Of a stretch of DNA of 64,000 bases, positions 10,177 through 53,583 are shown piece by piece. Origin of the DNA: an uncultured Gammaproteobacteria bacterium (lineage in GTDB: Bacteria > Pseudomonadota > Gammaproteobacteria > Methylococcales > Methylomonadaceae); the NCBI GenBank assembly GCA_963788135.1, contig CAWBFT010000049.1, forward strand, positions 318,546 through 382,545, in the 5' to 3' direction. The position numbers and the translations under genes are program-made. The notes under the pieces are model-generated. The model was not told the DNA's origin. It saw only the letters and a list, made by a program, of their open reading frames with translations, and did no database searches. Position 1 is the first letter of the stretch; each line of letters opens with the position of its first letter.

Positions 10177-10196
10177 TATACCGTCTGGACGGTATA
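10177..10196. promoter_or_regulatory. Putative TetR operator palindrome upstream of the tetR gene
   Basis: TATACCGTC-TG-GACGGTATA, 9-bp inverted arms with a 2-nt spacer, overlapping a TATAAT -10-like hexamer. Confidence 0.55.
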
Positions 10197-10270
10197 ATCA
10201 ATAGCCATCACAGCTTGCTTCGACGCGTTGGTAATACGTGTCGGTTACCGCGGCCGAAATGAACCATTCA

Positions 10271-14700: not shown

Positions 14701-14782
14701 CGCCCAACATGATCACGACCAAGAGATAGCCGATGAATGATTGGTGGCGTAATGCCCAATCTGAGAGGTTTAGCTTAGTCAT
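11732..14782 (-). CDS. RND multidrug efflux transporter permease (AcrB/HAE1-like)
   Basis: About 1016 aa, 12-TM RND architecture. Start MTKLNLSDWALRHQ (ATG at 14782). The ORF-track extension would overlap the upstream MFP gene. Confidence 0.9.
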   Translation of the reverse strand: MTKLNLSDWALRHQSFIGYLLVVIMLGGLMAYLTLSRAEDPEFTIKTMVVSAEWPGATAREMEQQVTDRLEKKLQETPWLDFVQSYSEPGKSYIFVNLKDYTPSTAVPDAWYQVRKKLSDVVHALPEGVRGPFFNDEFGDTYGTIYAFTTDGFTHAELKDAVDDVRQELLAIPGVAKVDLLGVQQEKVFIEVSHSKLANLGIDPMAIAQTLRQQNGMNPSGSIETSSDKVYMRVSGDLKSVDAIKEIGIEANGRQFRVGDIARVYRGYAEPMTPKFRYQGEDAIGLAVSMTKGGDILKLGEQLSTEIAKLSANLPVGMDVHQVSDQPRVVKRSIHEFMKSLGEAVVIVLAVSFLSLGWRTGLVVALSVPLVLALTFLVMKLLGIDLQRISLGALIIALGLLVDDAIISVEMMVVKMEQGWDRIKAATFAYTSTAFPMLTGTLVTAAAFTPVGFASSSAGEYCFTIFAVVAIALLASWLVAVIFTPYIGYLLLPDMKGKGIHDESEVYSRGIYPRFRRVLTSCLRRRRLVLTATAILFAVSIAALSLVERQFFPFSDRPEVLIDLWLPQGSSIQSTEAATLKAEALLKNDPDIVNFVSYVGAGSPRFFLTLDQQLDHDNFAQLVVLTKDLPAREKLIARLRKAFDNDFTLLRARLTRLENGPPVGFPVQFRVSGRDIAQTRQIAEQVAEVMRTNPHTQDVQLDWSEPSKVVRLDVDQDKARVLGVSSQDISTVLNTMLSGLGITDYRERNKLIEVLGRAEPGERKNPALIEEINVHTRSGKAVPLGQLVRSDYGFEEGIIWRRNRFPTFTVRSDIRDDSQAPEVTAQIEPLLEPLRAKLPDGYRIELGGAVESSQKAEASINAVMPVMLLGLVTLLMIQLQSVKRTAMVLLTAPLGMIGVSIILLIFHAPFGFVATLGVIALAGMIMRNSVILVDQIEQDISAGLRPWDAIIEAAVRRLRPILLTAVAAILAMIPLTGSVFWGPMAVAIMGGLLVATVLTMLFLPALYATWLGIKEE

Positions 14783-15881
14783 GGCCGCTCTCCAACAGCC
14801 TGACTTTTTGCCCAGCCACCAGTTTATGCACGCCGGCGGTGACGACACGTTCGCCTTGGTTCACGCCGCCGATGATCTTGGCGTTCTGATCGTCGTAGCC
14901 TTCGACCATGACAGCTCTTGGCTGGACAGTTTGGCTTTGATCATCGAATACCCAAACCGAGGGCTTGCCATCAAGCTCGGTCAAGGCGGTCAACATCAGG
15001 TTAGCGACAGGTTGATTCTCGTTTTTTTGGATATGTACCGTCGCGGTCATGCCCAAACTGACAGAATCGTCGGCTTCCGGCACGGACACTTTGATGGTAT
15101 ATGTACGCAATACTTCGTCGACCCCTGGTGAGATTTCCCGCAATTGACCTTGATAAAATCGTTCCGGATTAGCCCATAGATTGATCTTAATCGAACTGGC
15201 AGCCTTCAAATCCTGTAAGCGATTTTCCGGAATACTGGTTACCACTTCCTTTTCGTCGGCTCGAACTAAGCGAAAGATGGCTTGCCCCGCGACTATGATT
15301 TGCCCGGATTCGGCGTCGACGGAAGTAAGCACGCCGGCGTGATCGGCTCTCAACTCGGCGTAACCTGATTTTCGCGCATAGCTGCCTTGCGAGGCTTTGG
15401 CCGCAGCGACGCGCGCTTCAGCGTTTCTGACCTGGTCCTGGCGTTTATCCAGGGCCGCTTGGCTGGCCAGATCCTTTTGCTGCAGGTTAATAAGATGGTT
15501 TAAATCCTTGCGGGCTAGGTCCAATTCGGCTTGAGCCGCCGCGAGTTGCGCTAAAGCACCGGCTTCATCGAGTTTGACGTCGGCTTGGTCTAGCGTCGCC
15601 AGCAATTGACCACGCTTGACGACCATACCAACATCAACCAGGCGTTGAAGTAGTTTGCCACCGACTTGGAATGCCAAGGGGCTTTCGTGACGGGCCTTGA
15701 TCTCACCTGAATAACGAGCGGTGACCGCTATCTGTCGGTATTCGACCCCCGTCACTCTGACCGGGCGCGGCGGCGGATCGACAGGTTTAGTCTCGGAGCA
15801 GGCGACCAACAGAAAAGCCAATGGCAGGCAAAAAATTAACGGTGTACGAATCTCTTTAGATAGAAAGCTAATGCCAATCAT
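14775..15881 (-). CDS. RND efflux periplasmic adaptor (membrane fusion protein) lipoprotein
   Basis: Lipoprotein signal MIGISFLSKEIRTPLIFCLPLAFLLVACSE. HlyD_D23 / biotinyl-lipoyl-like domains. Start chosen at 15881. Confidence 0.8.
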   Translation of the reverse strand: MIGISFLSKEIRTPLIFCLPLAFLLVACSETKPVDPPPRPVRVTGVEYRQIAVTARYSGEIKARHESPLAFQVGGKLLQRLVDVGMVVKRGQLLATLDQADVKLDEAGALAQLAAAQAELDLARKDLNHLINLQQKDLASQAALDKRQDQVRNAEARVAAAKASQGSYARKSGYAELRADHAGVLTSVDAESGQIIVAGQAIFRLVRADEKEVVTSIPENRLQDLKAASSIKINLWANPERFYQGQLREISPGVDEVLRTYTIKVSVPEADDSVSLGMTATVHIQKNENQPVANLMLTALTELDGKPSVWVFDDQSQTVQPRAVMVEGYDDQNAKIIGGVNQGERVVTAGVHKLVAGQKVRLLESGHD

Positions 15882-16000
15882 CGAAGGTACTAACTGGATG
15901 AGTTTTGCATCAACCTTGGGCCGGTTCGAAAACCCGATGTAGGGCAGTAAATTTTTAACCAACGCCTGCCCATAGTCTTGCTCCCGATCACCGCAAATAG

Positions 16001-16585
16001 TCATCCTTGCAATGCCTCTATCACCACCTGCACTAATTGGCTGCCTTCGGGTGTAGTCCAACTGCCGGCAAGTTCGGCAATGAGTTGATTGGTGGTGGTC
16101 AGTGTGACGCCGCCTCGTTCCATCCGGCGCAAAGCAATGTCATCAGCCATCACAGTGGGTGAACCACCGGCATCGGCGACAACCTGCACCTCGAAATCAT
16201 CGCGGACTAAACTCAATGCGGGATAAACGGTGCATACATCATTGGTTACGCCGGCGACGATCAGTTTTTTGCGACCGGTTGCTCTGACCGCTGCGGCGAA
16301 GTTCTCATCGTCCATGGCGTTGACAATACCAAAACGTTTGATTCGGGCAGCAAAATCGGCTGGCAGGATACCCTCCAGTTCACTTAACAACGGCCCCTGC
16401 GCGTATTCTTCCATGCTGGAGGTCAGTACGACAGGTAACTTAAGGATACTAGCCGTCTTCGCCAGCATCAGCGCATTGCGTTTCATTTCTTCAAACGGAA
16501 TGGACTTTACCCAGCTCATGGTACCAACCTGATGGTCGATCAACAGCATGGCGGCATTATCGGAACTGAATTTTTCGTAACTCAT
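16001..16585 (-). CDS. Isochorismatase-family hydrolase (YcaC-like)
   Basis: Start MSYEKFSSDNAAMLLIDHQVG (isochorismatase N-motif). ATG at 16585 with an AGGAGA RBS. Confidence 0.8.
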   Translation of the reverse strand: MSYEKFSSDNAAMLLIDHQVGTMSWVKSIPFEEMKRNALMLAKTASILKLPVVLTSSMEEYAQGPLLSELEGILPADFAARIKRFGIVNAMDDENFAAAVRATGRKKLIVAGVTNDVCTVYPALSLVRDDFEVQVVADAGGSPTVMADDIALRRMERGGVTLTTTNQLIAELAGSWTTPEGSQLVQVVIEALQG

Positions 16586-16657
16586 GATGTTTCTCCTACG
16601 TTGTTGATGGGATGCATGCACCCATTGGGTAATAGCTGTTAACCAGCCAAAATAAAA

Positions 16658-17485
16658 TTACAAAGAGCCAAATTCCCCGCGTTGATAAGCGGCAATACGA
16701 TCCGCTAAGGCTTCAGGCGATGCCAACGCCAACGAACCCTGCCAATGCACCGGTTGCCGTAACGGCACGCCGGAAAACAGGACAGCCTTGGTATGGCCAT
16801 GCTTCGCTCTTAGCGTAATTTCAGAAGGCATTGCCTGGGCTGGAAACACTGGTAGCTTGGGTTGGTTGGCATCAAAGACTTCGCCGTTAATCTCCAGTGT
16901 GCCGAAGATCGGCATGACGAAAGCACTGTGGCCATTCGGGATTGGCACTGACAGACTGGCTCCCTCATCCAGCGAGATGTCGAGCAGGCGGACCTCTGTC
17001 GGCGGGTGTAACGGGGAATGTGCCTCGCCAAAGACACCAAGAGGTACGCGGACTTTCACGCCGGGCAACTGCACGATGGGCACGTCTTGTGGCTCAAGGC
17101 TTAACGCAAACGCTTCGGCGTCCTGCTTATCAGCAGCCAAGTTGACGAAGATTTGCAGCATATGCACGGTCTTGCCGATCTCGGCTGGCACTTCGTTATG
17201 AATGATCCCGCTACCGGCCGCCGTCCAGTGCAGACCACCAGGCTGAATGTGGTTACGATTTCCCAGCGAATCCCGGTTATCGATGCCGGTTTCCGAATCG
17301 AGAAACAGGTAAGACACCGCTGAAAAACCTGCGTGGGGATGCGGCTGGAAGGTTGGCGTACTGATCCAGGCATGATCGACACCGAGAAAAGGGTCAATCG
17401 GTTCGGCCATCTCGCCACCCCGTAGCGAGTAAGCGCGAAAACCACTGCCTATGTTCATGGGGTGTAATTGCGCGATATTACTCAT
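16658..17485 (-). CDS. Pirin-family protein (bicupin)
   Basis: Pirin N-domain metal-binding motif HPHAGFSAVSYLF...H...E. Confidence 0.8.
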   Translation of the reverse strand: MSNIAQLHPMNIGSGFRAYSLRGGEMAEPIDPFLGVDHAWISTPTFQPHPHAGFSAVSYLFLDSETGIDNRDSLGNRNHIQPGGLHWTAAGSGIIHNEVPAEIGKTVHMLQIFVNLAADKQDAEAFALSLEPQDVPIVQLPGVKVRVPLGVFGEAHSPLHPPTEVRLLDISLDEGASLSVPIPNGHSAFVMPIFGTLEINGEVFDANQPKLPVFPAQAMPSEITLRAKHGHTKAVLFSGVPLRQPVHWQGSLALASPEALADRIAAYQRGEFGSL

Positions 17486-17496
17486 GACCGCATGCC

Positions 17497-18567
17497 TCAC
17501 TTAGCGTTCGTTTCGTTTAAAAACGGGTAATCGGTGTAGCCTTCCGCACCGGGCGTGTAGTAGGTATTCTTGTCCGGGCTGTTAAGTGCCGCACCTTGAC
17601 GGAACCGCTCGGGCAAATCGGGATTCGCCAGGAAAGCACCACCAAACACCGTGGCGTCGGCACGGTCATCAGCCAACGCGGCTTCAGCACTGGCCTGGTT
17701 AAGACCGCCACCCATCAGGTACGCGCCACTGAAGCGTGAGCGTAACAAGGTGTGATAGTCGAATTTGGCCCCGAACAGTGCGACGTGCAGGTAAGCCAGA
17801 TTCAAGTCACGCAGCTGATCAACCAGGTAGGTATAGGTTTCTTGAGGATTAGCATCGACGATGTCGTTGAAGTTCATTTCCGGAGAAATCTTGATCCCGA
17901 CCCGATCCCCGCCGGCCTCAGCCACCATTGCCGCCAACACGTCCAGTACAAAACGGGCTCGATTGGCGACAGAACCACCGTATTGATCCTGGCGCTGATT
18001 GCTGCCGGAAGACAGGAACTGTTCAGGCAAATAGCCGGAAGCGGTGTGGAGTTCGACGCCATCGAAACCAGCCTCGAGGGCGCGGCGGGTAGCGAGTCGA
18101 TAATCATCGATCACACCAGCGATTTCCTCCAGGGTGAGCTCGCGGGGCGTGACAAAGTCCTGCAAGCCGTTGGCGGTCCAGGTTTGGCCGGCTGGCTTGG
18201 TCGCGGAAGGGGCGACGGGTTGTGCTTCATTAGGTAGCAGCGAAGGATGCGAGATGCGACCACAGTGCATCAGTTGCATGAAAATACGACCGCCGTTGGC
18301 TTGAACAGCGTCAGTCACTTTCTTCCAGGCGTTAACCTGAGCATCAGTCGCTATCCCCGGCGTGCGCACATAGCCCTTGCCCATGACTGACGGAAAAACG
18401 CCTTCGGTGATGATCAAACCCGCGCTGGCACGTTGCCCATAATAAGTCGCGGCTAGATCGCTAGGGACGCCGTCGTCGTCAGCGCGTGAACGGGTCATCG
18501 GTGCCATGATCAGGCGGTTTGGCAACGTATGACGACCAAGTCGAACGGATGTGAAGAGTTGGCTCAT
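17497..18567 (-). CDS. NADH:flavin oxidoreductase, Old Yellow Enzyme family (NemA-like alkene reductase)
   Basis: 356 aa. OYE N-terminus LFTSVRLGRHTLPNRLIMAPMTRSRA and the MQLMHCGR motif. Confidence 0.85.
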   Translation of the reverse strand: MSQLFTSVRLGRHTLPNRLIMAPMTRSRADDDGVPSDLAATYYGQRASAGLIITEGVFPSVMGKGYVRTPGIATDAQVNAWKKVTDAVQANGGRIFMQLMHCGRISHPSLLPNEAQPVAPSATKPAGQTWTANGLQDFVTPRELTLEEIAGVIDDYRLATRRALEAGFDGVELHTASGYLPEQFLSSGSNQRQDQYGGSVANRARFVLDVLAAMVAEAGGDRVGIKISPEMNFNDIVDANPQETYTYLVDQLRDLNLAYLHVALFGAKFDYHTLLRSRFSGAYLMGGGLNQASAEAALADDRADATVFGGAFLANPDLPERFRQGAALNSPDKNTYYTPGAEGYTDYPFLNETNAK

Positions 18568-18671
18568 AGTGTGTTCCTCATAAAATTACGTTGGACACAT
18601 GATCTACTAAAGTGAATTCGGGATAAAGTAGGTATAATTGAAATCTTTGATCCATACATGGAGCAATCAAA

Positions 18672-19553
18672 GTGGAACTCTTGAATGACATGGCCTTATT
18701 CGTCGAGGTCGTTAAGGCGCGAGGCTTTCGGAATGCTGCCGAGGCTGTCGGGATACCTAACTCCACGGTATCGCGCCGGATCAGTGCCCTGGAAAAAGCC
18801 ATTGGACTGCGGCTGCTGCACCGAACCACACGTAAAATCGAGTTGACGGAGGCGGGCCTGATCTATTTCGAACGCTGCAAACGTATCGTTGATGAGGCCA
18901 AACTGGCTCATGAACAGCTCGGGGAGTTGTTGGCACAGCCGAGTGGCGTATTGCGGGCATCACTGCCGGTGGATTTTGCCAATATCTATCTAGCACCATT
19001 GATTGCCGAGTTTGCACGCCAATATCCTGGCATCAGCTTCGATTTTGACCTGACGCCTCGATTGGTGGACCTCGTGTCTGAACCTTTTGACGTTGCCATC
19101 CGCATGGGTAACCAACCGAACTCGAATCTGATTGCGCGTCGGTTGACGGACTTGAGGCGCTATCTCTACGCTTCACCACGCTATCTCGAAAATTTTGACG
19201 AACCGGCTCATCCAGCTGATTTGGCGCTGCACGAATGCATCGGATTCAAAACGACAAAAGCCAGTACCTGGACATTGCACAGTTCCGATGACTCGGTTGA
19301 AGTCGTCGTCGGTGGCCGATTCCAACTCAATAGCGTTGGCTTGATCCGGCGACTAGCCATGCTTGATCTGGGAATCACCATCCTGCCTGAGGAAATTGTC
19401 GTCGAAGACGTGGCACAAGGACGGTTATGTCGAATTCTCCCTGACTGGGAAGGGCCATCAACCCCCGTCTACGCGATGACCGAGACACGATTGTTACCGG
19501 CCAAGACGCAACGCTTTATCGACTTTTTGCGGGATCGTTTAGGCAACAGCTGA
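18672..19553 (+). CDS. LysR-family transcriptional regulator
   Basis: 293 aa. N-terminal LysR HTH (FVEVVKARGFRNAAEAVGIPNSTVSRRISALE). Divergent from the OYE gene. Confidence 0.85.
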   Translation: MELLNDMALFVEVVKARGFRNAAEAVGIPNSTVSRRISALEKAIGLRLLHRTTRKIELTEAGLIYFERCKRIVDEAKLAHEQLGELLAQPSGVLRASLPVDFANIYLAPLIAEFARQYPGISFDFDLTPRLVDLVSEPFDVAIRMGNQPNSNLIARRLTDLRRYLYASPRYLENFDEPAHPADLALHECIGFKTTKASTWTLHSSDDSVEVVVGGRFQLNSVGLIRRLAMLDLGITILPEEIVVEDVAQGRLCRILPDWEGPSTPVYAMTETRLLPAKTQRFIDFLRDRLGNS

Positions 19554-30653: not shown

Positions 30654-31092
30654 GAACCTTGTTTTTTGTAAAACTAATAATAACCCTTCATTATCCATGA
30701 TATCGCCAAGTTTATCTATGCAAACGCAAGTTGGCTCAAGTTATTTGTTGCCCCAATGCTTAATTTAGGTAGTACCGTCAAAACCTCCTCAAAATAAAGC
30801 TTCGGTGAATAAAAATATATATTTTATTTGTAATGTTGCCTTCGTGATTTTTCTTTAAATAAAATAGATATGATAATTTTATCAATAAGATAAATAAACA
30901 TATTACAAATATGGCATGGATATCGCTTAGTTATTTTTGTCGTTCATTGAGCTCAAGTGCTGACAAGTTGTGGTTTTTGCCACGCTGGTGCAACTTAACC
31001 CAATCTTGGTCGTTAGGTTGTATGCCGCCGAGTTCAAAATTGACAAACGGGTGGTTCTGGAGAATATAGATTGGTTCTATTCCAATACGCCC

Positions 31093-31164
31093 CAATGGAT
31101 AGCTCAATGGTAGAGCAATAGACTAATAATCTATCTGTCGTGGGTTCGACTCCCACTCCAACGG
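31093..31164 (+). tRNA. tRNA-like element, possible pseudo-tRNA: anticodon loop CTAATAA (anticodon AAT) and two acceptor-stem mismatches
   Basis: Cloverleaf by eye. D arm GCTC-AATGGTA-GAGC, anticodon arm ATAGA-CTAATAA-TCTAT, variable loop CTGTC, T arm GTGGG-TTCGACT-CCCAC. Acceptor CAATGGA pairs with TCCAACG with A-A and A-C mismatches. No CCA encoded. Conserved U8, A14, G18G19, A21, T54T55C56, A58 are all present. Confidence 0.5.
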
Positions 31165-31432
31165 TCTGTAAAACCGATATTAATAAATGCAGTAGGGCTG
31201 GTTGTGGAATGCATAAGCCTCCATTGCCTTTAACCCGCGAAAGAATTGCTGAACGGGCAAGCCGTCAGGTCGCTTTGAATGGCGAAGCGTATGGTTGAAT
31301 TAACAGTTATCGGGTTAGTGCAGGCTTAAGCGGGAACATTTCATCGCGCCTTTCATCTCCCTCGTTTAGCCGGACGGACGATTAGGTTAAGGGTATTGAC
31401 CAGATTTTTAGTAATGGAAGGGAATAATAATT

Positions 31433-41195: not shown

Positions 41196-42181
41196 TTACT
41201 CGGATTTGTGGATTATCTTTGGTATTCCAGTCAGTGCAGAACGATTAATGTCAACCATTATATTGTCAGGCAGAAAGCTTGATAGTGTCGGTTGAGGCTT
41301 GACAAATTTTAAAGTCATCCTGTCGCTTTCGCCGATGGCAAGATAAAAATCACGATCCTTTTCTTTTAATTTTAGGGTGGGCGGGAGCGTCCATACGCCT
41401 TCCGGGTAATCTTTGACGTCTTTGGGATTAGCGTTGATTTCGGATTTTGCCAAGAATTCAAACCCGGCATTTCTGGCTAAGGCGATCACGTAGTCTTCGT
41501 TAACATAACCTGATTTTGCGGTAGGGTTCTGGCGGTTTTCTGGCAGAGCCACGGTGCTCAACGACACCAAGAATACCCCCCGGTTTTAAGGCTTTAAACA
41601 TAGCGCTGAAAACCATTGCCGCCTGGTTGTTTTTCATCCAGTTATGCACGTTGCGGAAGGTTAGCACTCGGTCGGCTGTGCCCGTCAGGGGCGATTTTCA
41701 AATACTCAGGCGGTTGTAATGTTGTTATTTCGACTTTATCGTATAGGGATGGTTGGCTTTTAAGTTTTTCGTTAAATTTAGCCAGTTTCGCTTTCTGGTA
41801 AGAATTCTGCGTATCCGGAGAAAATTGTGCGGCATAGAATTTGCCTTTTTCCCTCAGAAATGGCGCCAGAATTTCGGTATACCAACCATCACCCGGCCAA
41901 ATTTCCACAACTGTCATAATGTCTTTGACGTCGAAAAAATTCAGGGTTTCTTCGGGGTGTCGGTATTGATCGCGGTGTTTGTTTTCTGGAGAACGGTGCG
42001 AGCCTTCAATTATTTGTTTTAATGTAGCAGGTGCGTTGCCAATTATTGGTGTGGGTGCAGCGGAAATAGATGTGGCGGCTTTTAGCTCATCAGCCTGCAA
42101 TGATGGAATTATTTGAATGCTAACAAGTAAAGCCAATAGTAATTTATACATATATTTTCTCGATGATGTCCAAGTTATCAA
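41196..42181 (-). pseudogene. Secreted class-I SAM-dependent methyltransferase, disrupted by a frameshift near 41650-41690
   Basis: Upstream ORF: signal peptide plus motif I (VVEIWPGDGWYTEILAPF). The downstream part continues only in another frame (TFRNVHNWMKNNQAAMVFSAMFKALKPGGVFLVSLSTVALPE, post-I/III motifs), which the ORF track splits into 41642..42181 and 41196..41570. Confidence 0.55.
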
Positions 42182-42200: not shown

Positions 42201-42719
42201 CTAGCCTTCGCGATAATTCCAAAATTGTAGCAAACTTAAGGTTGCCAAACTTAAAAATGCAACGAGAGTCCAAGCGGGCATGCTGATGCCGAATAACGTC
42301 CAATCGACTTTGGCGCAATCGCCAGTGCCGCTTAACATTAACTTGATGGTTTCTGTGAGTGGAAAATTTTGCAATACGTAATCCAATCCAGGACCGCATT
42401 CAGGCACTTTATCCTCGGGCAGGTGCTGAATCCAGACATGTCTTGCCGAGACGGAACCGCCCGCCAAGGCAACAACAGCCCCCCAAATCGCATAACGCCT
42501 AGTGCCAATTAAGCCTGGGTTGTGAAGAAAAGCGATTAAAAAGCAAAAGCCAGTCAGAAAAATACCGATGCGTTGGGAAATACACAACGGGCAAGGTTCC
42601 AGTTTTTCTACAAACTGAAAATAATACGCTGCTCCCAAAAGCGTCACGCAGCCTAAAAAACCCAATAAAAACCAAATTCGGGCATTAAATCTTAATTTAT
42701 TTATCAAATTTTCTATCAT
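42201..42719 (-). CDS. dsbB: Disulfide bond formation protein B
   Basis: 172 aa, four TM helices. Cys pairs CPLC and C...C in periplasmic loops. Confidence 0.85.
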   Translation of the reverse strand: MIENLINKLRFNARIWFLLGFLGCVTLLGAAYYFQFVEKLEPCPLCISQRIGIFLTGFCFLIAFLHNPGLIGTRRYAIWGAVVALAGGSVSARHVWIQHLPEDKVPECGPGLDYVLQNFPLTETIKLMLSGTGDCAKVDWTLFGISMPAWTLVAFLSLATLSLLQFWNYREG

Positions 42720-43104
42720 TTTGGTTAATTTAAAACTAATGTTAAAGTCAAAGCTTTCATTATCTGATTGTAAACCTACAATGAGATTGAGTTCAGGTAA
42801 ATTTTACCAATCTCGATCCTTTATTATCCCGAAGAATTCGCTTCCATTTGGGCTGAGGGATTGTAATGGGTTAAGGGATTGTAAATGGCTACTGAAAAAT
42901 ATCACATTTTAAAAAATCAATTTTGTACTACATTTTTAATCCGTGATTCAATGAAATATCGTGCATTAACTGCATTTTTTGTGAGCGTTAAGGATATTAG
43001 GTGGTTTCTACTAAACTTACTTTTATTAAGTTGAATAGTTTCGTATTTTCCACTCCAGAAATTCATTTTTCGCATAGTAAAAATGTTACTTGGTAATTAA
43101 TTTT

Positions 43105-43851
43105 ATGAGCATACAAAACGATACGGCCATTAATAAACCAGTTATAAACCAGTATTCGGAATTAGATGTCATGATTCAGGCTTTGGCTTATCTCTCTATG
43201 GCGCGAGAAGGGGAGGGTGTAAACCATCTGAGGCGAATTCAAAGTTATATAAAAATTTTATCGAAATCGCTGAAATCGCACCCTCGTTTTGCAAGTTATC
43301 TGGAGTCAGACGAGGTTATCGATTCGCTTGCCAAGGCAGCTGCTTTGCATGATATTGGGAGCGTTGGTGTCCCTGACAGGATACTATTGAAACCGGGCAG
43401 GTTAACGACCGATGAATTTGATGTCATTAAAACGCATCCAAAAATCGGTTTAGATTTGATCTCGCAAGCTGAACAGGATACGGGGAAATCTGTGCCCATG
43501 TTAATTTATGCTAAAGAAATCATTTTTAATCATCACGAAAGATGGGATGGTAGTGGATATCCTGAAGGCATATTTGGGGATGAGATTCCGATTTCTGCTC
43601 GGCTTTTTATGGTGGCGGATGTCTACGATGCTTTGATTAGCCGAAGAGTATACAAAGCCCAAATGAACCATCAACAGGCGGTTAAGGTGATGTCGGACGG
43701 CAGAGCAACTCTATTTGATCCTGATGTTATTGATGTTTTCATTCAGGTGAATGAGGAATTTAGGCGAATTGCTTATTTATATGCCGACAATGAAAAAGAT
43801 TTCAAAAGGAAGATAGATTATTTAGAAAAAGCTATTGCGATAGAGCCTTAA
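43105..43851 (+). CDS. HD-GYP domain protein (cyclic-di-GMP phosphodiesterase-like)
   Basis: Metal-ligand motifs HD...H...HHERWDGSGYP...D. ATG at 43105 is preferred over the TTG at 43090. Confidence 0.8.
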   Translation: MSIQNDTAINKPVINQYSELDVMIQALAYLSMAREGEGVNHLRRIQSYIKILSKSLKSHPRFASYLESDEVIDSLAKAAALHDIGSVGVPDRILLKPGRLTTDEFDVIKTHPKIGLDLISQAEQDTGKSVPMLIYAKEIIFNHHERWDGSGYPEGIFGDEIPISARLFMVADVYDALISRRVYKAQMNHQQAVKVMSDGRATLFDPDVIDVFIQVNEEFRRIAYLYADNEKDFKRKIDYLEKAIAIEP

Positions 43852-44400: not shown

Positions 44401-45186
44401 ATGAAGATCTTTCCTGCAAGATTTATGTCGCCCGGATGCTTTATTAATCTGGTGCTGATGTCAGCTTTTTTCTTCACGACACAGGCGATAAGTCAACCTC
44501 TTCATGCCGCTGACGAGCAAAATACGGTAGAAATTGCTAAGAAGCCTCGCCTTTTAGACCCATTGTCCCCGAGCGAGCGCTCTCTTGCAGAACGGCTTGC
44601 CCAAAACGCTAATCGTTCAATGCGAGCAAGAATGATGTCGGAAAGTAAGCCTAGGCCAAAAGGATTGGAGGGTTTGGAAAATATGCAAACTCTCTATAGT
44701 CAACATCATAATGAAGACAAGAATTCCGATCCTTTATCGCGCAAAGCAGATGTTTTTTTATATGACTATTCGAATAACGAATCAATCCGGGTAGTGGTAG
44801 ATTTAAAAGATAATACCGTTCAAGACAGAGTTGTGACTAAAGGGGCCGTAAATCAACCCTTTTTTACTCAACGGGAAATAAATGCTGCGTTACAACTTAT
44901 TTTTGACCATCCTGACATGGGGTCTCGTCTCCGAAACGCTTACCGGAATGTATCTGGACAAGAACTTATAAATGTTAACCAGCTACAGGCAGAAGGTGGC
45001 ATCTATTTTACTGATCCCCGCACACCACTGGGTAGAATTACAGCCTCTTGTAAAGAGGATCGATGCATGCAGCTTTTTATACCCATTAATGACTCGAGTT
45101 TCATAGATACAAGTAACGTCATAGTCAATCTCTCAACGGGAGAAGTTATGTGGACTGATCAAGGCATATCTGAGCATACACACTAA
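44401..45186 (+). CDS. Secreted protein resembling copper amine oxidase N2/N3 domains only
   Basis: Signal peptide. VFLYDYSNNESIRVVVDLKDNTVQDRVVTKGAVNQPF matches the CuAO N3 domain pattern (...A.P.EGL...VDL....V..I.D.G.VP.P). Confidence 0.6.
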   Translation: MKIFPARFMSPGCFINLVLMSAFFFTTQAISQPLHAADEQNTVEIAKKPRLLDPLSPSERSLAERLAQNANRSMRARMMSESKPRPKGLEGLENMQTLYSQHHNEDKNSDPLSRKADVFLYDYSNNESIRVVVDLKDNTVQDRVVTKGAVNQPFFTQREINAALQLIFDHPDMGSRLRNAYRNVSGQELINVNQLQAEGGIYFTDPRTPLGRITASCKEDRCMQLFIPINDSSFIDTSNVIVNLSTGEVMWTDQGISEHTH

Positions 45187-45209
45187 TTAAATCTAGGAAA
45201 GTATATAAA

Positions 45210-46385
45210 ATGAGCATGTCGTACAAAAGAACGGTAAAAAATTTTAGTGCTGTAATACTCGTAATTCTGGGTGTTAGTGTTACACAAGCAGCTACGTGTA
45301 TTAATCCATCACCCAAATCTGTAGATTGCCAAATGACAAAGGGTGCTCGTTGGGAGTTTACTTGGGCTAATGATGTCAAAAAGGGCCTAGTATTGAGTGG
45401 GATAACCCTTACGGCAAAATCAGGGGCGCCCAGGACACTCATTCTTCAAGAAGCATCCTTAGCGCAACTGCTTGTGTCTTATGATAACAATAGCGGCAAT
45501 CAACACTATGCGAGTGATTCGGGACTAGCTTTAACCCCTTTAGCGGTTAAGGACTGTCCACTCCCCGGCAAATTATTACCAAATAATGGAGTCAATAGTG
45601 CGCTCTTATGTCAGATGATAATTCCACGTGGTTACGCTTGGCGCGGATCAGGACAAATTCAAGGAGAAAGTCTGATTTTATTTGGGGTGAGTGCGGTTGG
45701 TGGGGATACTTATATAAGCCAGTGGATATTCAACGATGATGGCTCTATCCAAATTAGGCTTGGCGTAAGCGGTCAGGTTGATCCATCACGTGACTCCTCT
45801 GCTGCTACAGGTTGGCCGATTGGTATTCCTGGATCGGCTCGTTACGCGACAAACCGTTATCATACCGCTTATTGGCGTCTTGATTTTGCCATAGGGGGAC
45901 AAGATAACGACTTATTTCAGCAGCTGGATTATGCCGGTTTACCATTTTTTGGATACATTAGAACTCAAACAATCACCGATAGATTGATTGAAGGTCAATT
46001 TAAGTATTCACCAGAAGGTCAGCGGTTTTGGATAATTAAAGATAAGGCAATTAGCAATTTAGCAAATGGACAGAAAATAGCTTTCCAAATAGTGCCGCAT
46101 CAAACATCTATGCATCGTGGTGGCGATGCCTTCACCAACTTTGATGTTTATGTTACCCAAAACAAAGCTTGTGAACAATTTGCTTCACATAATCCGACTA
46201 CAAGCGGTTGTGGGGTCGGTTTGCCTCAGTTTGTTAATGGAGAAGCTATCAGTGATCCTGTAGTTTGGGCTGGTTCTACTTGGCATCAAGTGCCACGCGC
46301 TGAAGATGAAGCCGATATTCAGACTCATTGGCAAGGGATCGTTATTGCGCCTCGTGATTTAACCGACACATCTCCCTTTAACTAA
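45210..46385 (+). CDS. Secreted copper amine oxidase catalytic-domain homologue lacking the TPQ consensus (probable pseudo-enzyme)
   Basis: Aligns to the CuAO catalytic domain: SAVGGDTYISQWIFNDDGSIQIRLGVSGQ (cf. VGNYDYIFDWIFHENGTIGIDAGATG), YHTAYWRLDFAIGG (cf. HQHIYNFRLDLDVDG), WHQVPRAEDE (cf. HVARAEEWP). N-Y-D is replaced by G-D-T, and the first His of HxH by R-Y. Confidence 0.7.
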   Translation: MSMSYKRTVKNFSAVILVILGVSVTQAATCINPSPKSVDCQMTKGARWEFTWANDVKKGLVLSGITLTAKSGAPRTLILQEASLAQLLVSYDNNSGNQHYASDSGLALTPLAVKDCPLPGKLLPNNGVNSALLCQMIIPRGYAWRGSGQIQGESLILFGVSAVGGDTYISQWIFNDDGSIQIRLGVSGQVDPSRDSSAATGWPIGIPGSARYATNRYHTAYWRLDFAIGGQDNDLFQQLDYAGLPFFGYIRTQTITDRLIEGQFKYSPEGQRFWIIKDKAISNLANGQKIAFQIVPHQTSMHRGGDAFTNFDVYVTQNKACEQFASHNPTTSGCGVGLPQFVNGEAISDPVVWAGSTWHQVPRAEDEADIQTHWQGIVIAPRDLTDTSPFN

Positions 46386-46402
46386 GTAACGGGCAATACA
46401 AG

Positions 46403-48316
46403 ATGAAATCGTTTTCTCTTTTTGAGTCATTCATTATCCAAACCGTCTCCTCGATCTTTTGCGCGGTTTTATTTTTGCTGTCTGTACAAAATGTGTTAGC
46501 ACAGACAACAGAAACGCTGGGTTGCTCGACTGAATACCAAATCGTACAAACTTTTGCTAATTCGGCTAAGTGGGAAATGTGTTGGGAGCCAAGAGCAGGG
46601 TATGGCTACCGTATAACGCAGGTCATTTATACGCCTCCGCATGGTATTCGAAGAAAAGTACTCGGTTCAATGCATCTAGCGCAATTATTTGTTCCATATG
46701 ATGAGAATGGCGCTCGATATCACGACATCGGTTTCGGTAAAAATCTGGAGTTGCTTACCCCAGCCGAATGCCCGGAAGGAAATTTGCAAACAAATCATAC
46801 GTTATGTTTGGTGCATCGCCCGACGGGATATTTTTATAAGAATGTGAGTATTGGAGAGTCGAGCCAGGGTGACAGCTTTGCTGTTTTCGGCTATATCGCC
46901 TTTAGCAGTTACAAGTACATTTTGCAGTACACATTTTTTGATGACGGCACGATAGAGCCGTCAGTCGGTGCCACAGGCAGTTTAGCTCGTTTTGCAGGGA
47001 CAGCGAGAACTGGTTGGCCAATTGGTAAACCCATTCAAATGGCCGTGAGTCACAACCATCTTCTCATTTGGCGAATGGATTTCGATCTTGATGGTAATTC
47101 AAATAATCGAGTTGAGAGAGTGAGCTTTACAAATACTGGCGGTGACGGGCGAAGTATGTCGGTAACGCCTCTTACAGTTGAAGCAAAAGAGGTCAATAGC
47201 CTTGCGAATGCCACGTTTTGGCGGGTTGTTAATACTGCCCAAAAAAATGCCGACGGACGCAATATCTCCTACGAAATTGAACCTAGTGTTACCGATTTAC
47301 TCCGCGCGCCAGAGGATTTTACTCAAAATGACTTTTACTTAACCCAGTATAAATCTACGGAAGAAATAGTCGATTCCGGCCTTGTCAGTTTTGTTGGCGA
47401 CGAAGTGATTACTGATCCTGTATTGTGGTATGGGGTAAACTTCCATCATGTTCCGCGTGCCGAGGATGATATTAAGATGCCTGTTCACTGGCAAGGCTTT
47501 CGCTTACGTCCGAGGGATGTAACTACGTCCAAGGCCGTTGTTACGAATTATGTGCCGGTCATCATAAATCCTGGGGCGCAAACGAGCGGCGTGAATAGCA
47601 ATGTGAGTATGCAAATCAAGGCAACCGATGCAAACGCTGGAGATATTTTGAAGTATAGTGCAACTGGATTGCCGACAGGGTTGAGTATCAATGCTGCCAC
47701 TGGCTTGATCAGTGGCAAAGTTCCAACTGTTGCTGGTGTTTATACAACTCAGGTATCCGTTAGTGATAGTCATCCGGGGGGGGCGGTCAGTGTCAATTTT
47801 ATTTGGACAATTAGCGCCGTGATGTCCAGTAACACACCGCCGGATATCATTAATCCCAATGCCCAGACAAGCGGAGTAAATAGCCCTGTAAGTATGCAAA
47901 TAAAAGCGACCGATGCAAATGCAAGGGATGTTTTAAATTATAGTGCTACCGGATTGCCGACAGGTTTGAGCATAAATAGTAACACCGGCTTGATTAGCGG
48001 TACTACGCCGGTTATTGCTGGCAATTATGCTGCCCAAGTAACTGTGAGTGATGGTCATCCGAATGGTATTTCCAAAATTAGCTTCCCTTGGACTATAACG
48101 GCGGGCGGTGTTTCTCAAACTCAGACATTCACTTCTCCTGATGTTATCACCATTCCAAATAAGGGAGACGCTTCACCGTATCCAGTAAATGTAAATGTTA
48201 ACGGAATGACGGGTTTTGTTAGCAAAGTAATCTTAACTTTGAATGGCTTAACCCACAGCTATCCGGCTGACATTGATATGCTGTTAGTTGGTCCGGGGGG
48301 CAGAAGGCAATACTGA
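46403..48316 (+). CDS. Secreted CuAO catalytic-domain homologue fused to Ig-like (He_PIG / dystroglycan-type cadherin-like) repeats and a proprotein-convertase P-domain. Terminates inside the P-domain at a poly-G frameshift.
   Basis: Catalytic Asp (YHDIGFG), Tyr in S-Y-K at the TPQ position, HNHLLIWRMDFDLDG and FHHVPRAEDD all present. Two repeats of INPGAQTSGVNS.VSMQIKATDANAGD.LKYSATGLPTGLSIN..TGLISG. P-domain start ...YPADIDMLLVGPGG, then a stop. Confidence 0.7.
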   Translation: MKSFSLFESFIIQTVSSIFCAVLFLLSVQNVLAQTTETLGCSTEYQIVQTFANSAKWEMCWEPRAGYGYRITQVIYTPPHGIRRKVLGSMHLAQLFVPYDENGARYHDIGFGKNLELLTPAECPEGNLQTNHTLCLVHRPTGYFYKNVSIGESSQGDSFAVFGYIAFSSYKYILQYTFFDDGTIEPSVGATGSLARFAGTARTGWPIGKPIQMAVSHNHLLIWRMDFDLDGNSNNRVERVSFTNTGGDGRSMSVTPLTVEAKEVNSLANATFWRVVNTAQKNADGRNISYEIEPSVTDLLRAPEDFTQNDFYLTQYKSTEEIVDSGLVSFVGDEVITDPVLWYGVNFHHVPRAEDDIKMPVHWQGFRLRPRDVTTSKAVVTNYVPVIINPGAQTSGVNSNVSMQIKATDANAGDILKYSATGLPTGLSINAATGLISGKVPTVAGVYTTQVSVSDSHPGGAVSVNFIWTISAVMSSNTPPDIINPNAQTSGVNSPVSMQIKATDANARDVLNYSATGLPTGLSINSNTGLISGTTPVIAGNYAAQVTVSDGHPNGISKISFPWTITAGGVSQTQTFTSPDVITIPNKGDASPYPVNVNVNGMTGFVSKVILTLNGLTHSYPADIDMLLVGPGGRRQY

Positions 48317-49422
48317 TGTCTGACACTGGTAGTACAACCCCCATTAATGCTATTTCGTTAACATTTGATGCTGCATCAGCCTCATTGTTGCCTCAGAGCA
48401 CAGTGATAAGTACTGGGGTCTATAAGCCTACGGATTACGCATTAGGCTATATTGATAGCTTTCCATCTCCCGCACCAACAGGCTCATATCAAGCTGATCT
48501 GAGTGTTTTTAATGGGGTTTCACCCAATGGAATATGGAAAGTTTATGTATTCGATGATTTAGGCGGCGATTTCGGAAAAATACAAAATGGGGTATCTCTA
48601 ACCATTACCACAGGCGGTAATACTACAGATACTAACACTCCACCTGTTATCACCAGTCCCGGTGCGCAAACAAGCATAATGAATAGGAGTGTAAGCCTGC
48701 AAATAAAAGCGACAGATGCAAACGCTGGAGATGTTTTAAAATATAGTGCTACCGGATTGCCGCCAAATCTAAGCATCAATGCCACTACAGGCTTGATCAG
48801 CGGGACTGCAACCACTGTTACTGGCAATTATACTGCCCAGATAACTGTGAGTGATGGTCATCCGAATGGTATTTCCAAAGTTAGCTTCCCTTGGAAAATA
48901 ACGGCGGGCAGTGCATTCCAAACCCAGACATTCACATCACCTGACGCTATCATTATTCCAAATATGGGAGCAGCTTCCCCATATCCAGCAAATGTAAGTG
49001 TTAACGGAATGACGGGCTCTGTTAACAAAGTATCTTTAACTTTGAATGGCTTATCCCATGTTTATCCGGCCGATCTCGATATTCTGTTGGTTGGTCCGGG
49101 AGGGCAGAAGTCGTTGCTGATGTCTGATGCTGGGGATACAAAACCCATTAATGCTATTTCGTTAACATTTGATGCCGCATCTGCTGCGGCTCTGCCTCAG
49201 AGCGCAGTGATAAAATCTGGTGTCTATAAGCCCACGGATTACGCCATTGGCCCTGCAGACAGCTTTCCAGTGCCCGCACCAATAGGTCCATATCAAACTG
49301 ATCTGAGTGTTTTTAATGGAGCCTCACCCAATGGAATCTGGAAAGTTTATGTATTCGATGATGTAGGCGGCGATTTCGGCAAAATACAAAATGGAATTTC
49401 ACTTAAGATTTCTACTCAATAG
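48316..49422 (+). CDS. Ig-like (He_PIG) plus P-domain repeat protein. Most likely the frameshifted continuation of the preceding CuAO-like gene.
   Basis: Begins with the second half of a P-domain, then one He_PIG repeat and one complete P-domain (ADLDILLVGPGGQKSLLMSDAGDTKPINAISLTFDAAS...GIWKVYVFDDVGGDFGKIQNGISLKI). Start overlaps the upstream stop (TGATG). Confidence 0.65.
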   Translation: MSDTGSTTPINAISLTFDAASASLLPQSTVISTGVYKPTDYALGYIDSFPSPAPTGSYQADLSVFNGVSPNGIWKVYVFDDLGGDFGKIQNGVSLTITTGGNTTDTNTPPVITSPGAQTSIMNRSVSLQIKATDANAGDVLKYSATGLPPNLSINATTGLISGTATTVTGNYTAQITVSDGHPNGISKVSFPWKITAGSAFQTQTFTSPDAIIIPNMGAASPYPANVSVNGMTGSVNKVSLTLNGLSHVYPADLDILLVGPGGQKSLLMSDAGDTKPINAISLTFDAASAAALPQSAVIKSGVYKPTDYAIGPADSFPVPAPIGPYQTDLSVFNGASPNGIWKVYVFDDVGGDFGKIQNGISLKISTQ

Positions 49423-49820: not shown

Positions 49821-50270
49821 ATGACGCATTTGGCGGAACGCTTCAGGGTCTCAAGGCCAACGATCTATGCCATCCTCAAGCGGGCAAGGTTACAAGAATT
49901 TAAGCCCCGGGACAGCCAACCCATGCTTCAAGCCCCTCCAATTTGGCCTTAAACGCCTCGTCAAAGTTGACCAAGAGCGCCTTAAACGCAGAGCTAGACC
50001 CTACAACAAGTCTTATCCGGGCGAACTCGTCCACTTAGATACCAAGCGCCTGCCGCTGCTCAAAGGCCAATCACCCGCCCAGCCCAGGGAATACTTGTTC
50101 GTCGCTATGGACGACTTCTCCCGCGAGCTTTACGCCGGCATCCTGCCGGACAAGGCCCAAGACAGCGTCGCCCAATTTTTGGTCGGCAACGTCATTGCCC
50201 AATGCCCTTACCAGATCGACTACGCTTACTCCGACAACGGCAAGGAGTACCGGGGTACTGACAACCATGC
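49821..50270 (+). pseudogene. IS481-family transposase remnant (HTH and DDE integrase core fragments in different frames, C-terminus missing)
   Basis: MTHLAERFRVSRPTIYAILKRA (HTH), then in another frame LVHLDTKRLP...YLFVAMDDFSRELYAGILPDK...AYSDNGKEYRG (rve DDE core). Confidence 0.5.
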
Positions 50271-50645
50271 TTTAGCATCTCATTCTTGGTCCCGTCGCTT
50301 TTGTGCTTCACTTTCTTGGTCGCCAAGTCGCTGTAAAGGAAAGGCTTGCGAACCAATTCAAACGCCACCGGCAACGACACGCCGCCAACATGGTAAAGGC
50401 AGTTGAGGATATTGATGCCCTTGACCGTACAGTTCTTGGTGTGGTCAAAGTATTAGCACACCAGTTCGTTCTCGTCGGTATAGGGCTTTTCCTGGATCGT
50501 GTCGTCAAAGATCAATACGCCATCCTCCTGTTCGATCTCACGCACCGTCTTTTTGACGTGCCGCCATAATATTTTTGAGTCATAGTCGTCCCGGTTCAAA
50601 AATCGAGTCACTTGGTCGTGGCTTAACGCCCCGTCTAGCTGGCTT
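50271..50645 (-). pseudogene. IS4-like DDE transposase fragment abutting the IS481-like remnant
   Basis: Minus-strand reading ...EDGVLIFDDTIQEKPYTDENELVC(stop)YFDHTKNCTVKGINILNCLYHVGGVSLPVAFELV. Approximate limits. Confidence 0.35.
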
Positions 50646-50865
50646 AAACGGTGTAGCGTAAGCGAAAAGTTAGATTACGTTTACAGCTACCAGATTTACC
50701 TGTTTCTTTCAGTCTTTTGATATAAATCAATTGTTCATACGTTTAGTTGGTTATCTTTGTTCAAATAGAAGTTACATAAAAGGTTATCCCTGTGCAAATC
50801 CAGTTTTAAAGGAAAATATCACGGAGTGCAGATGTAACAGTTACTTTAATTATGAGAAGTTGAAT

Positions 50866-52242
50866 ATGATTTCATTAAAACTAAAAAAATCGTTTTCTTA
50901 TGGCTTGGCATTGCTGCTGGGTTGTTTTTTTAATTTATCTATAGCGGGTGAAACGACTATTGAAAGCGTCAGTTATAATGGTGTACAAGGAAATGCAAAT
51001 AGTGATCAACCAAGTATAAGCGCCGATGGTCGCTTTGTGGCATTTAATTCCGCATCTTCTAATTTAGTAACACAAGATAACAACAATAGCTATGATTCTT
51101 TTATTCATGACAGATTAACAAAACAAACTACACGAGTAAGTATTAATAGTCATGGGGTAGAAGGAAATTTTGGAGGTTTAAATACAGTCATTAGTGGTGA
51201 TGGTCGCTTTGTTGCATTTGAATCTTTTTCAACCAACTTAGTTGACGGTGATACCAATAATAATTATGACATTTTCTTACACGACCGTGTAAAAAACTAC
51301 CACACGGGTTAGTGTCGATAGTAACGGTGTAGAGGCAAATTCTTCTACGTTCGGAGGTATAAGCATAAGTGAGGATGGTTGTTTTGTAGTATTTCAATCT
51401 GATGCGACCAATTTAGTTAAGGGCGGAACAAAACAATTTCCAAACGTTTTTGTTCACGATACACTTACTAAACAAACACAGCTGGTCAATATTAATAAAA
51501 ATGGAAATGAGGGAAATGTCGGTAGCCAGCTAAATGGAACTCATAGCATAAGCGCCGAGGGGCGTTACATAACATTCACATCATGGGCTAGCGATTTGGT
51601 TGATGATAATAATGGAGCTTCTGATGTTTTCGTGTTTGACCGATTGAGCAAAAAAACAACGAGGGTTAGTGTCAATAGCAACGGAATTGAAGGAAACAGC
51701 TGGAGTTTGTCCCGATGTATAAGCTCTGATGGTCGCGTTATATTGCTTTTAATTCCCAGGCTTCTAATCTAGTTTCAAATGATAATAACAATATAGATGA
51801 TGTTTTCATCCATGATCGAATATCTAAGCAAACTTCTCGGGTAAGTATTGGAAGTAAAGGCCAAGAGGGAAATTGGTCTAGTGGCTTATCTATTAGTATT
51901 AGTGCAAACGGACGTTATGTAATTTTCAGTTCACTTGCGAACAATTTAGTCACTGGAGATACTAATTCAACATACGATGTATTTAGTCACGATCGGTTAA
52001 CTAAACAAACAACACGAATGAGTGTTGCCAACAATGGCGCGGAAGGTAATGGAGCCAGCCTTTATTCAGATCTCAGTGCCGATGGACGGTTTGTTGCTTT
52101 TGTGTCCAATTCCGATAATCTTGTTTCTAAGGATATTAATTATTCTGATGATATCTTTATCCGCGACCGTCTCCTAGATAAAAAACATCACTCCGATCTA
52201 AAAAATCAACGTAGTACAACAACCCTGGGGTTTAGCCAGTAA
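50866..52242 (+). pseudogene. Secreted PD40 / TolB-like beta-propeller repeat protein, with at least two frameshifts
   Basis: Signal peptide MISLKLKKSFSYGLALLLGCFFNLSIAGE. About eight repeats of S.DGRFVAF.S.ASNLV..D.N...D.F.HDRLTKQTTRVS. Reading frame changes at the A6 run near 51288-51293 and near 51730. Confidence 0.6.
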
Positions 52243-52602: not shown

Positions 52603-53583
52603 AAACCCGTGGTGCATTTAGGGGATAAAAAATAAGTTGCTCATTTTCACTGGGTGAATATCATTAAATTTTCGCCAAAAAACAAATGATATGAGCAACT
52701 TATGTGTAAGTTATAACAAAATATTGGGGTTATTGCACGAACTGGAACCCGCAGACAATTTCCTCAAACAAGTCCGTACACCTAAGCTATCGGACAAACA
52801 ACTGATTGCGCTGTCGTTGTCGGCAGAAAGCCTCGGCATTGACTCGGAACGTTACCTGTTCAAACAATTGCCGGCCAACCTGGCAAGCCAAATTGAACGT
52901 TCCGTGTTCAACCGGAGGCGGCGAGGCCTGAAATTCATGGTTGAACATTTCCGCCAACGGATGGTCACTGTGCTGGTGCCGTCTGAGGGTTATTTTTTTT
53001 TGTTGACAGCATGCCCCTGGAAGTTTGTAAAACCGCCCGTGCCAAGCGCTCCCGTATTTGCCAAGATGTCGATGGGGCGGCGCCCAGCTACGGCTATTGT
53101 GCCGCGCACAACGCGCATTACTTCGGTTATAAATTCCATGCGGTTTGCACACCCCAAGGGGTTGTCAAAACCTTCGATATCTCAACCGCAGCCACTCATG
53201 ACATCCATTACCTCAACGATCTGAAAACCCAGCTCCAGCACTGCGTTTTGGTCGGGGATAACGGTTACCTGAGCCGCCAATATCAACAGGACTTGTTCGA
53301 AACTGCCGCCATCCGGCTGGAAACCCCGAAACGCCGTAACCAAACCGACTTTGTGCCGTTCAGCCCCGTGTTAAGGAAAGCCAGAAAACGCATCGAGACC
53401 TTGTTTTCCCAGCTTTGTGACCAGTTCATGATCCGACGTAATTACGCCGAATTCTTTACAGGCTTGTCCACCCGTATCCTCTCTAAAATGACCGCATTAA
53501 CCCTCATTCAATGGCTAAACCATCGCAATGGAAACAATTTGAACAACTTGAAAATCGTTATTTCCTAAATGCACCACGGGTTT
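52603..53583 (+). mobile_element. IS982-family insertion sequence (981 bp) with 20-bp perfect terminal inverted repeats
   Basis: AAACCCGTGGTGCATTTAGG at 52603-52622, and its reverse complement CCTAAATGCACCACGGGTTT at 53564-53583. Confidence 0.8.
52691..53568 (+). pseudogene. IS982-family transposase split by a frameshift in a T9 homopolymer (52993-53001)
   Basis: The ORF-track ORFs 52691..53224 and 53011..53568 join as ...SEGYFFF-VDSMPLEVCKTARAKR...YCAAHNAHYFGYKFHAVCTPQGV...LVGDNGYLS only if the tract were T10. Confidence 0.7.

Follow-up and report, generated by a model that had tools for sequence, protein, structure and literature searches.

Copper amine oxidases (CuAOs) are a textbook case of enzymes with a self-processing, protein-derived cofactor. 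The hallmarks of the family are homodimers with the domain order D(1)-D2-D3-D4, a T-x-x-N-Y-D/E motif around the tyrosine precursor of topaquinone (TPQ), three strictly conserved histidines, an aspartate base, and a conserved tyrosine, Tyr305 in HPAO, that hydrogen-bonds to O4 of TPQ (PMC3382800). All solved CuAOs are homodimers in which two hairpin arms of D4 form part of the active site of the partner (PMC3382800), and CuAOs have been reported to be functional only as dimers (PMC4497604). Here we analyze a 64,000-nucleotide stretch (hereafter, the window) of contig CAWBFT010000049.1 from an uncultured bacterium of the Methylomonadaceae, in which three neighboring genes at 44401-49422, here called g1, g2, and g3, encode the parts of a CuAO on separate polypeptides.

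The locus departs from the described systems in several respects. AGAO of Arthrobacter globiformis and ECAO/TynA of Escherichia coli are homodimers of identical D2-D3-D4 chains (PMC3382800), whereas D2/D3 is carried here by a polypeptide of its own. The D4 domain is ~345 amino acids (aa) long, compared with ~500 aa in the review figure (PMC3382800); it lacks the T-x-x-N-Y-D/E motif, is accompanied by a dead D4 paralog, and is followed in g3 by a tail of Ig-like repeats and P-domains. Pichia pastoris lysyl oxidase, a CuAO-family enzyme that acts on peptidyl lysine, follows the canonical plan of a homodimer whose single chains carry N-domains and N-Y-D/E, and nothing at this locus shows g3 acting on peptidyl lysine. 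The engineered AGAO WT/Y382F (wild type/mutant) heterodimer, in which the wild-type protomer is normally active, likewise pairs a live and a dead protomer in a D4:D4 dimer and shows, by analogy, that the live/dead arrangement proposed below would be feasible (Gaule et al. 2015, PMC4497604). However, that heterodimer is artificial, differs by one point mutation and has D2/D3 on both chains, whereas g2 is a natural paralog that is ~33% identical to g3 and has lost four catalytic residues.

Heterodimers of an enzyme and a pseudoenzyme, such as ADAT2/ADAT3, keep the dead duplicate as an obligate structural or substrate-positioning partner, with folds and chemistry unrelated to those at this locus. 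To our knowledge, no pseudoenzyme partner has been described on the CuAO fold. In the literature library that we could search, neither this family nor any naturally split or heteromeric CuAO turned up, which is not proof that none has been reported; a "tree of life of CuAOs" paper covers plants and animals only. The fold and the probable chemistry are already known; the split three-gene organization, the conserved dead protomer, the noncanonical cofactor motif, and the tail are new. Our favored reading, which we hold at about an even chance, is that the three genes together specify a single secreted oxidase, heteromeric and CuAO-like, in which g3 is the catalytic subunit, g2 the structural second protomer, and g1 the source of D2/D3 in trans.

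Three CuAO-derived genes, one of them catalytically dead

The cluster comprises four open reading frames (ORFs) on the plus strand, arranged head to tail with a spacing of 17-24 nucleotides. Their coordinates and the peptide strings quoted in the initial annotation, which was made from the sequence alone, were confirmed, and its proposal of three remodeled CuAO-derived genes was borne out by Pfam matches and alignments. The genes and their ORFs are as follows.

44401-45186, plus strand: g1, 261 aa, a secreted stand-alone tandem D2/D3 (N2/N3) cystatin-like protein
45210-46385, plus strand: g2, 391 aa, a secreted CuAO D4 domain, catalytically dead by its residues
46403-49422, plus strand: g3, 1006 aa once repaired, assembled as two ORFs
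46403-48316, plus strand: first ORF of g3 (g3a), 637 aa
48316-49422, plus strand: second ORF of g3 (g3b), 368 aa

Judged by eye, all three proteins start with what looks like a Sec signal peptide, a basic N terminus followed by a hydrophobic stretch, with putative cleavage between TQA and A in g2 and between VLA and Q in g3. Pfam assigned Cu_amine_oxid (PF01179) to both g2 (E=1.2e-23) and g3 (E=1.3e-29). We then read the catalytic positions from HMMER alignments to PSAO for g3 and to ECAO for g2, and from family alignments.

46697-46699: g3 Tyr99 (V-P-Y-D), equivalent of HPAO Tyr305; the tyrosine is kept in g2 (V-S-Y-D)
46724-46726: g3 Asp108, the Asp base; Tyr100 in g2 (45507-45509)
46910-46912: g3 Tyr170, the TPQ-precursor tyrosine; Asp166 in g2 (45705-45707)
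47051-47059: g3 His217-x-His219, the first and second His ligands; Arg216 (45855-45857) and a kept His218 (45861-45863) in g2
47447-47449: g3 His349, the third His ligand; Gln360 in g2 (46287-46289)

Of the five catalytic residues, g2 by this alignment retains His2 alone, with Asp, Tyr, His1, and His3 all lost, and its sequence marks it as a catalytically dead pseudo-enzyme. The initial annotation had called it one after seeing the precursor tyrosine replaced and the first histidine lost, both of which we recovered as Asp166 and Arg216, and g2 proved more degenerate than claimed. Its third His box had been taken as retained, but this reading was out of register: the third ligand of AGAO and ECAO is the histidine immediately preceding [VF]-[PA]-R, and W-H-Q-V in g2, compared with T-H-V or H-H-V, has Gln360 at the ligand position and its histidine one residue early.

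The full catalytic set that had been attributed to g3 was found in the alignments. Among the features of the CuAO family, g3 has a PF01179 D4 domain, the three His ligands, the Asp base, and the Tyr305 equivalent; it lacks the T-x-x-N-Y-D/E consensus and D2/D3 on the same chain as D4. Tyr170 lies in the context A-F-S-S-Y-K. We considered the lysine of S-Y-K as a family feature forming a cross-link like that of lysine tyrosylquinone, and rejected it because only 2 of 131 live members carry S-Y-K.

The cofactor motif across the family

Searches with g1, g2, and g3 revealed a sizeable CuAO-like family without N-domains, whose members bear automatic names only ("copper amine oxidase," "primary-amine oxidase," "hypothetical," or, through the P-domain, "subtilisin-like proprotein convertase family protein"). 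They have predicted signal peptides and occur in methanotroph-like Gammaproteobacteria, Granulosicoccaceae, actinomycetes, and Chloroflexota-type metagenome-assembled genomes (MAGs). The initial annotation had not recognized the architecture of g3. The combination of PF01179, He_PIG, and P_proprotein is not unique to the window, since it is present in ~15 database proteins, but all of these are indeed uncharacterized. Proteins P0003-P0012 show the g3 layout as single chains of 740-925 aa, and the best named relative with this architecture, from Candidatus Methylobacter favarea, is 64% identical to g3.

We aligned 166 D4 domains of the family; all begin right past the signal peptide, save those of two fusions. 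The Asp/Tyr/His/His/His set is kept in 131 of them, none of which has N-Y-D/E: the precursor tyrosine of these live domains is usually found as A/Q/E-Y-N or Q/N-Y-Y, and S-Y-K occurs twice. The other 35 domains are degenerate, and the majority fall in the g2 clade, where x / D, G or N / R / H / Q recurs at the five positions; within that clade the R-x-H...Q substitutions are themselves conserved. A C-terminal extension was present in 68 of 129 live proteins, whereas the 34 short dead proteins consisting of a single D4 domain all lacked one, which speaks for a division of labor between dead and live D4.

A systematically different TPQ consensus raises the question of whether the g3 family consists of amine oxidases at all. 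Its Cu(His)3/Tyr/Asp site might instead serve other chemistry, with a different tyrosine-derived cofactor or cross-link, another substrate, or a role in extracellular copper handling in a copper-hungry methanotroph-like organism; the Methylobacter origin of the closest named relative would fit the latter, and neither aldehyde dehydrogenase nor amine-uptake genes were found near the cluster. We regard this alternative as improbable. The live clade keeps the five residues that define CuAO catalysis together with the HPAO Tyr305 equivalent, the family extends well beyond methanotrophs into actinomycetes, Granulosicoccaceae, and others, and consensus mutants of HPAO reportedly still form TPQ. Furthermore, a member from Solirubrobacter deserti (locus L004, 9653-11734), which lies outside the set of 131, is the only one seen with a canonical N-Y-E. 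Its D4 likewise lacks N-domains and has a g1-like gene upstream, and this member usefully links the canonical enzymes to the N-domain-less family.

g1 as a stand-alone D2/D3 pair

Single-sequence searches linked g1 to CuAOs weakly, with a subthreshold match to AGAO-like_N2 (PF21994; 22 bits against a cutoff of 27.4, E=1.9e-4) and a match to NCBIfam PRK11504 (E=1.8e-5); no CuAO was among the Protein Data Bank sequences matched by the g1-family profile. The link is visible only through these weak hidden Markov model matches and through structure. When the predicted model of g1 was compared with known structures, the best matches were CuAOs, aligned over both D2 and D3 (~150-190 aa). They are listed with the three values of each comparison, the middle one being the aligned length.

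ECAO 1d6u: 9.6, 188, 8.8
PSAO 1w2z: 8.9, 156, 3.9
HPAO 3n9h: 8.8, 159, 3.9
AGAO 1rjo: 7.7, 151, 3.6

In contrast, single cystatin-like or NTF2-like domains aligned to the model over ~70 residues only. The predicted structure thus identifies g1 as a stand-alone D2+D3 pair, in line with its earlier description as an N2/N3-only protein. The g1 profile matched 349 clusters at E<=1e-3 and 216 at E<=1e-10 among 1.84 billion representatives, nearly all of them stand-alone proteins of 220-300 aa. The g1 family alignment shows an invariant His103, a conserved Cys217-x4-Cys222 pair, and an invariant or near-invariant G-x-H-x-H at the extreme C terminus (His259 and His261 in g1). This H-x-H tail could bind metal, with copper delivery as one conceivable role, or might be inserted into a partner protein; it is missing from the natural fusions P0019 and P0025 described below.

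Gene order and natural fusions join the three proteins

A profile scan with a five-sequence alignment yielded nine GTDB loci, none of them from the genome of the window. In all nine, the D4 gene or genes are immediately preceded by a g1-like gene, and in seven a dead D4 is placed between the g1-like part and the live D4. We define the split family by this pairing, which the window shows as well: an N-domain-less D4 gene with a gene of ~220-290 aa for a g1-like D2/D3 protein just ahead of it. Loci L001 (Candidatus Methylobacter favarea) and L002 have the order g1, dead D4, live D4; in L003 the three parts are fused in one gene; and the dead D4 domains of these three loci are members of the g2 clade. 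The same order recurs in four Granulosicoccaceae MAGs (L005-L008, at ~8040-11500 in each). There the dead D4 is very divergent and separate from the g2 clade (patterns such as DLALF), with the tyrosine changed to Leu or Phe and the histidines to Ala / Leu or Val / Phe, His or Tyr, and this dead partner is possibly of independent origin.

Natural fusions repeat this arrangement on single chains. P0019 (968 aa, corresponding to L003:8117-11023) and P0025 (978 aa) combine g1-like, dead-D4, and live-D4 parts in that order, and P0369 (640 aa) joins a g1-like D2/D3 region to a dead D4 without precursor tyrosine or HxH, which suggests that the N-domain subunit pairs primarily with the dead protomer. 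The proposal in the initial annotation that the three proteins work together is strongly backed by the gene order in unrelated contigs and by the g1-g2-g3 fusions. As the flanking genes vary from locus to locus, the trio is a self-contained module; we saw no recurrent functional partner among the flanks of the window, L001, L003, L005, L010, L012, L014, and L015.

Some loci have fewer parts. L004, L009, and a Nonomuraea locus contain a g1-like gene and a live D4 only; in Nonomuraea, the 217-aa gene immediately before the live D4 matches the g1 profile with E=6e-27. Genes of 224 and 228 aa without Pfam matches occupy the same position in Streptosporangium and Hydrocarboniphaga, and we assumed them to be g1-like. 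The existence of members without a dead partner means that the dead subunit is not universally required.

The proteins could therefore be linked without forming a g2:g3 heterodimer, since a live D4 evidently need not have a dead partner. Under this alternative, g3 would be a homodimeric oxidase, g2 would act as a binding, regulatory, or decoy protein through its old amine pocket, and g1 would be a separate helper, such as a cystatin-like inhibitor or a chaperone that assists folding or copper loading; the g1 fold does also resemble cystatins, NTF2-like, and PepSY-type domains. A structural model of the single-chain fusion (pTM 0.45) gave no confident interdomain packing, and only one of its D4 domains superposed on CuAO chains. 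Nevertheless, we consider such a looser association, and with it the helper roles for g1, unlikely: the g1-g2-g3 fusions and the g1-dead D4 fusion argue for close physical association, the order of domains in the fusions mirrors the canonical D2-D3-D4, and the best matches of g1 are CuAOs over both domains (~150-190 aa) rather than a single cystatin-like domain (~70 aa).

The dead subunit is conserved to much the same degree as g3. Across five complete trios, identity was 56-85% for g2, 64-83% for the D4 of g3, and 52-80% for g1, and by this measure g2 is maintained rather than decaying. In a neighbor-joining tree, built with no bootstrap and having long branches, the g2 clade was monophyletic and sister to the live clade of g3 and actinomycetes, and at least two further groups of dead D4 domains lay elsewhere, which hints, tentatively, that dead partners arose more than once.

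At the Nonomuraea sp. NBC_01738 locus (L010), the g1-like gene and the live D4 adjoin an imine-reductase-like gene (RedAm-like_C, 1309-2169) and a large regulator of the SARP (Streptomyces antibiotic regulatory protein)/BTAD type (2228-5266). Downstream are a gene for GlgB and several for S8 peptidases, and GlgB and one S8 peptidase recur in Streptosporangium (L014), a recurrence that may reflect shared ancestry only.

A homopolymer frameshift splits g3

The initial annotation had described g3 as a catalytic domain fused to He_PIG repeats and P-domains and continuing into the second ORF. Pfam supported the domains, with He_PIG in g3a (E=1.7e-31) and He_PIG (E=3.5e-15) and P_proprotein (E=3.5e-8) in g3b as assembled. 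The split into two ORFs, by contrast, comes from a frameshift in a homopolymer. The features of g3 in order are given below.

46505-47542, plus strand: D4 (catalytic) domain, PF01179 E=1.3e-29, supported by PSAO and family alignments
47558-48106, plus strand: two He_PIG Ig-like repeats (Pfam PF05345, PF24908)
48107-48636, plus strand: first P-domain-like module, broken by the frameshift, PF01483 E=1.5e-4 after repair
48295-48300, plus strand: six-G run, site of the -1 frameshift that splits g3
48637-48909, plus strand: third He_PIG repeat (Pfam)
48910-49419, plus strand: second P-domain-like module, PF01483 E=3.5e-8

The sequence at the junction of g3a and g3b reads ...GGTCCGGGGGGCAGAAGGCAATACTGATG..., and with seven G in place of six at 48295-48300 the frame continues as ...LLVGPGGQKAILMSDTGS..., the counterpart of ...LLVGPGGQKSLLMSDAGD... 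in the second copy of the P-domain module. The restored stretch LLVGPGGQKAILMSD agrees with the second copy, GPGGQKSLLMSD, and with relatives, and the added G yields a single frame of 1006 aa whose sole stop is the natural one. Because the repaired frame matches the second module copy and the relatives and has only the natural stop, g3a and g3b are one gene interrupted by a homopolymer frameshift. Repaired g3 consists of a signal peptide, a live-looking D4, two He_PIG repeats, a P-domain, a third He_PIG repeat, and a second P-domain. In its tail, Pfam detects three He_PIG repeats (together E=6e-46) as well as P_proprotein (E=7e-11), and the first P-domain module, a repeat of the second, reaches 22.2 bits against a cutoff of 21 for PF01483.

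The frameshift could be an assembly error, a recent pseudogenization, or, in principle, a slippage-prone switch. An assembly indel is plausible, though not proven, because other genes of the window near the cluster are also broken. Two independent read sets yielded an identical g2 and the same neighbor genes; their contigs stop before 48295-48300. The frameshift, together with the remnants of transposase and integrase genes and further broken genes in the vicinity, could also be taken to mean that the locus is decaying, with g2 a dead duplicate, g3 a pseudogene, and nothing functional left in this genome. We consider this very improbable: the g2 clade is old, monophyletic, and conserved, and g2 is no recent casualty; the g3 frame is intact over 1006 codons apart from the G6 homopolymer, which fits either an error in assembly or a change that happened very recently; and g2 and its neighbors are the same in both read sets.

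A methyltransferase-like gene upstream of the cluster (41196-42181, minus strand; S-adenosylmethionine dependent by resemblance, with the motifs FRNVHNW and LKPGGILGVVEH) is likewise spread over two ORFs, and at least two frame changes would be needed to restore it, which points either to numerous indel errors in the assembly or to genuine decay of genes in this genome.

A proposed heteromer with a single active site

In our favored reading of a heteromeric oxidase, the D4 of g3 would bind one copper through His217, His219, and His349, and Tyr170 would be converted into a quinone cofactor, most likely TPQ, despite its S-Y-K context. With Asp108 as the base, g3 would oxidize a primary amine with O2. 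g2, a dead paralog under selection, would replace the second protomer of the D4:D4 dimer, its arms walling the active site of g3 in a g2:g3 pseudo-dimer with a single active site, and g1 would provide in trans the D2/D3 that in canonical CuAOs shares a polypeptide with D4. The tail of He_PIG repeats and P-domains on g3 may tether or direct the complex to a cell-surface or polymeric target. We counted for such a heteromer the complementary pattern of the two D4 domains, in which g3 keeps Asp/Tyr/His/His/His and g2 has lost Asp, Tyr, His1, and His3.

Several observations weigh against this proposal. The canonical TPQ consensus is missing from g3 and from all 131 live members, so the cofactor could differ or not form; L004, L009, and Nonomuraea have no dead partner; a Thiolinea D4 gene has no adjacent g1-like gene; g3 is frameshifted as assembled; and no neighbor gene at the locus hints at a substrate.

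Were the proposed heteromer real, it would offer a natural test of long-debated questions: why the dimer is obligatory, whether its two sites communicate, and which parts D2/D3 and the consensus residues play in the biogenesis of TPQ. It would also be a new example of a pseudoenzyme partner, on the CuAO fold, and an entry point to hundreds of uncharacterized proteins. More broadly, these loci might belong to a class of secreted CuAO-fold oxidases, widespread yet undescribed, that are assembled from separate subunits, with D2/D3 as a polypeptide of its own. A dead D4 would have replaced the second protomer more than once, in several lineages, to give a one-active-site heteromer; the biogenesis or identity of the cofactor may differ; and variable C-terminal tails of surface type would direct the enzymes to macromolecular or cell-surface amines and not to small nutrient amines. 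We put this generalization at somewhat less than an even chance.

Surroundings of the cluster

The cluster had been placed in a low-GC accessory region. This did not hold, as its GC content of 0.41-0.45 is in line with the remainder of 20-64 kb (0.38-0.51), and the first part of the window is richer (0.51-0.55 at 4-20 kb). The compositionally odd part of the window is a GC-richer block at 3153-19553. It encodes two efflux systems, one with an ABC-2 permease, an ABC ATPase, HlyD, and an outer membrane efflux protein (OEP), the other with an AcrB-type pump of the resistance-nodulation-division (RND) type, a membrane fusion protein (MFP), and an OEP, together with a pirin, a flavin oxidoreductase of the old yellow enzyme (OYE) type, and a LysR regulator. 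A scan for promoters and terminators around the cluster gave results at or below chance.

Just upstream of the cluster lie a DsbB gene (42201-42719) and a gene for an HD_5-type HD-domain protein (43090-43851). The three CuAO-like proteins have conserved Cys pairs. The proximity of the two genes is probably coincidental, because these neighbors are not conserved at related loci. Right downstream is mobile-element debris, an rve integrase-core fragment (49867-50406), followed by a truncated secreted PD40-repeat protein (50731-51312) and a DDE_Tnp_1 transposase divided between two ORFs that overlap (52691-53568). The window opens inside a 23S rRNA gene, of which it contains the 3' 1.1 kb, followed by 5S rRNA (1-1482). 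ARAGORN detected a tRNA-Ile with anticodon AAT at 31092-31166, which is unusual, as the bacterial norm is GAT and a lysidine-modified CAT.

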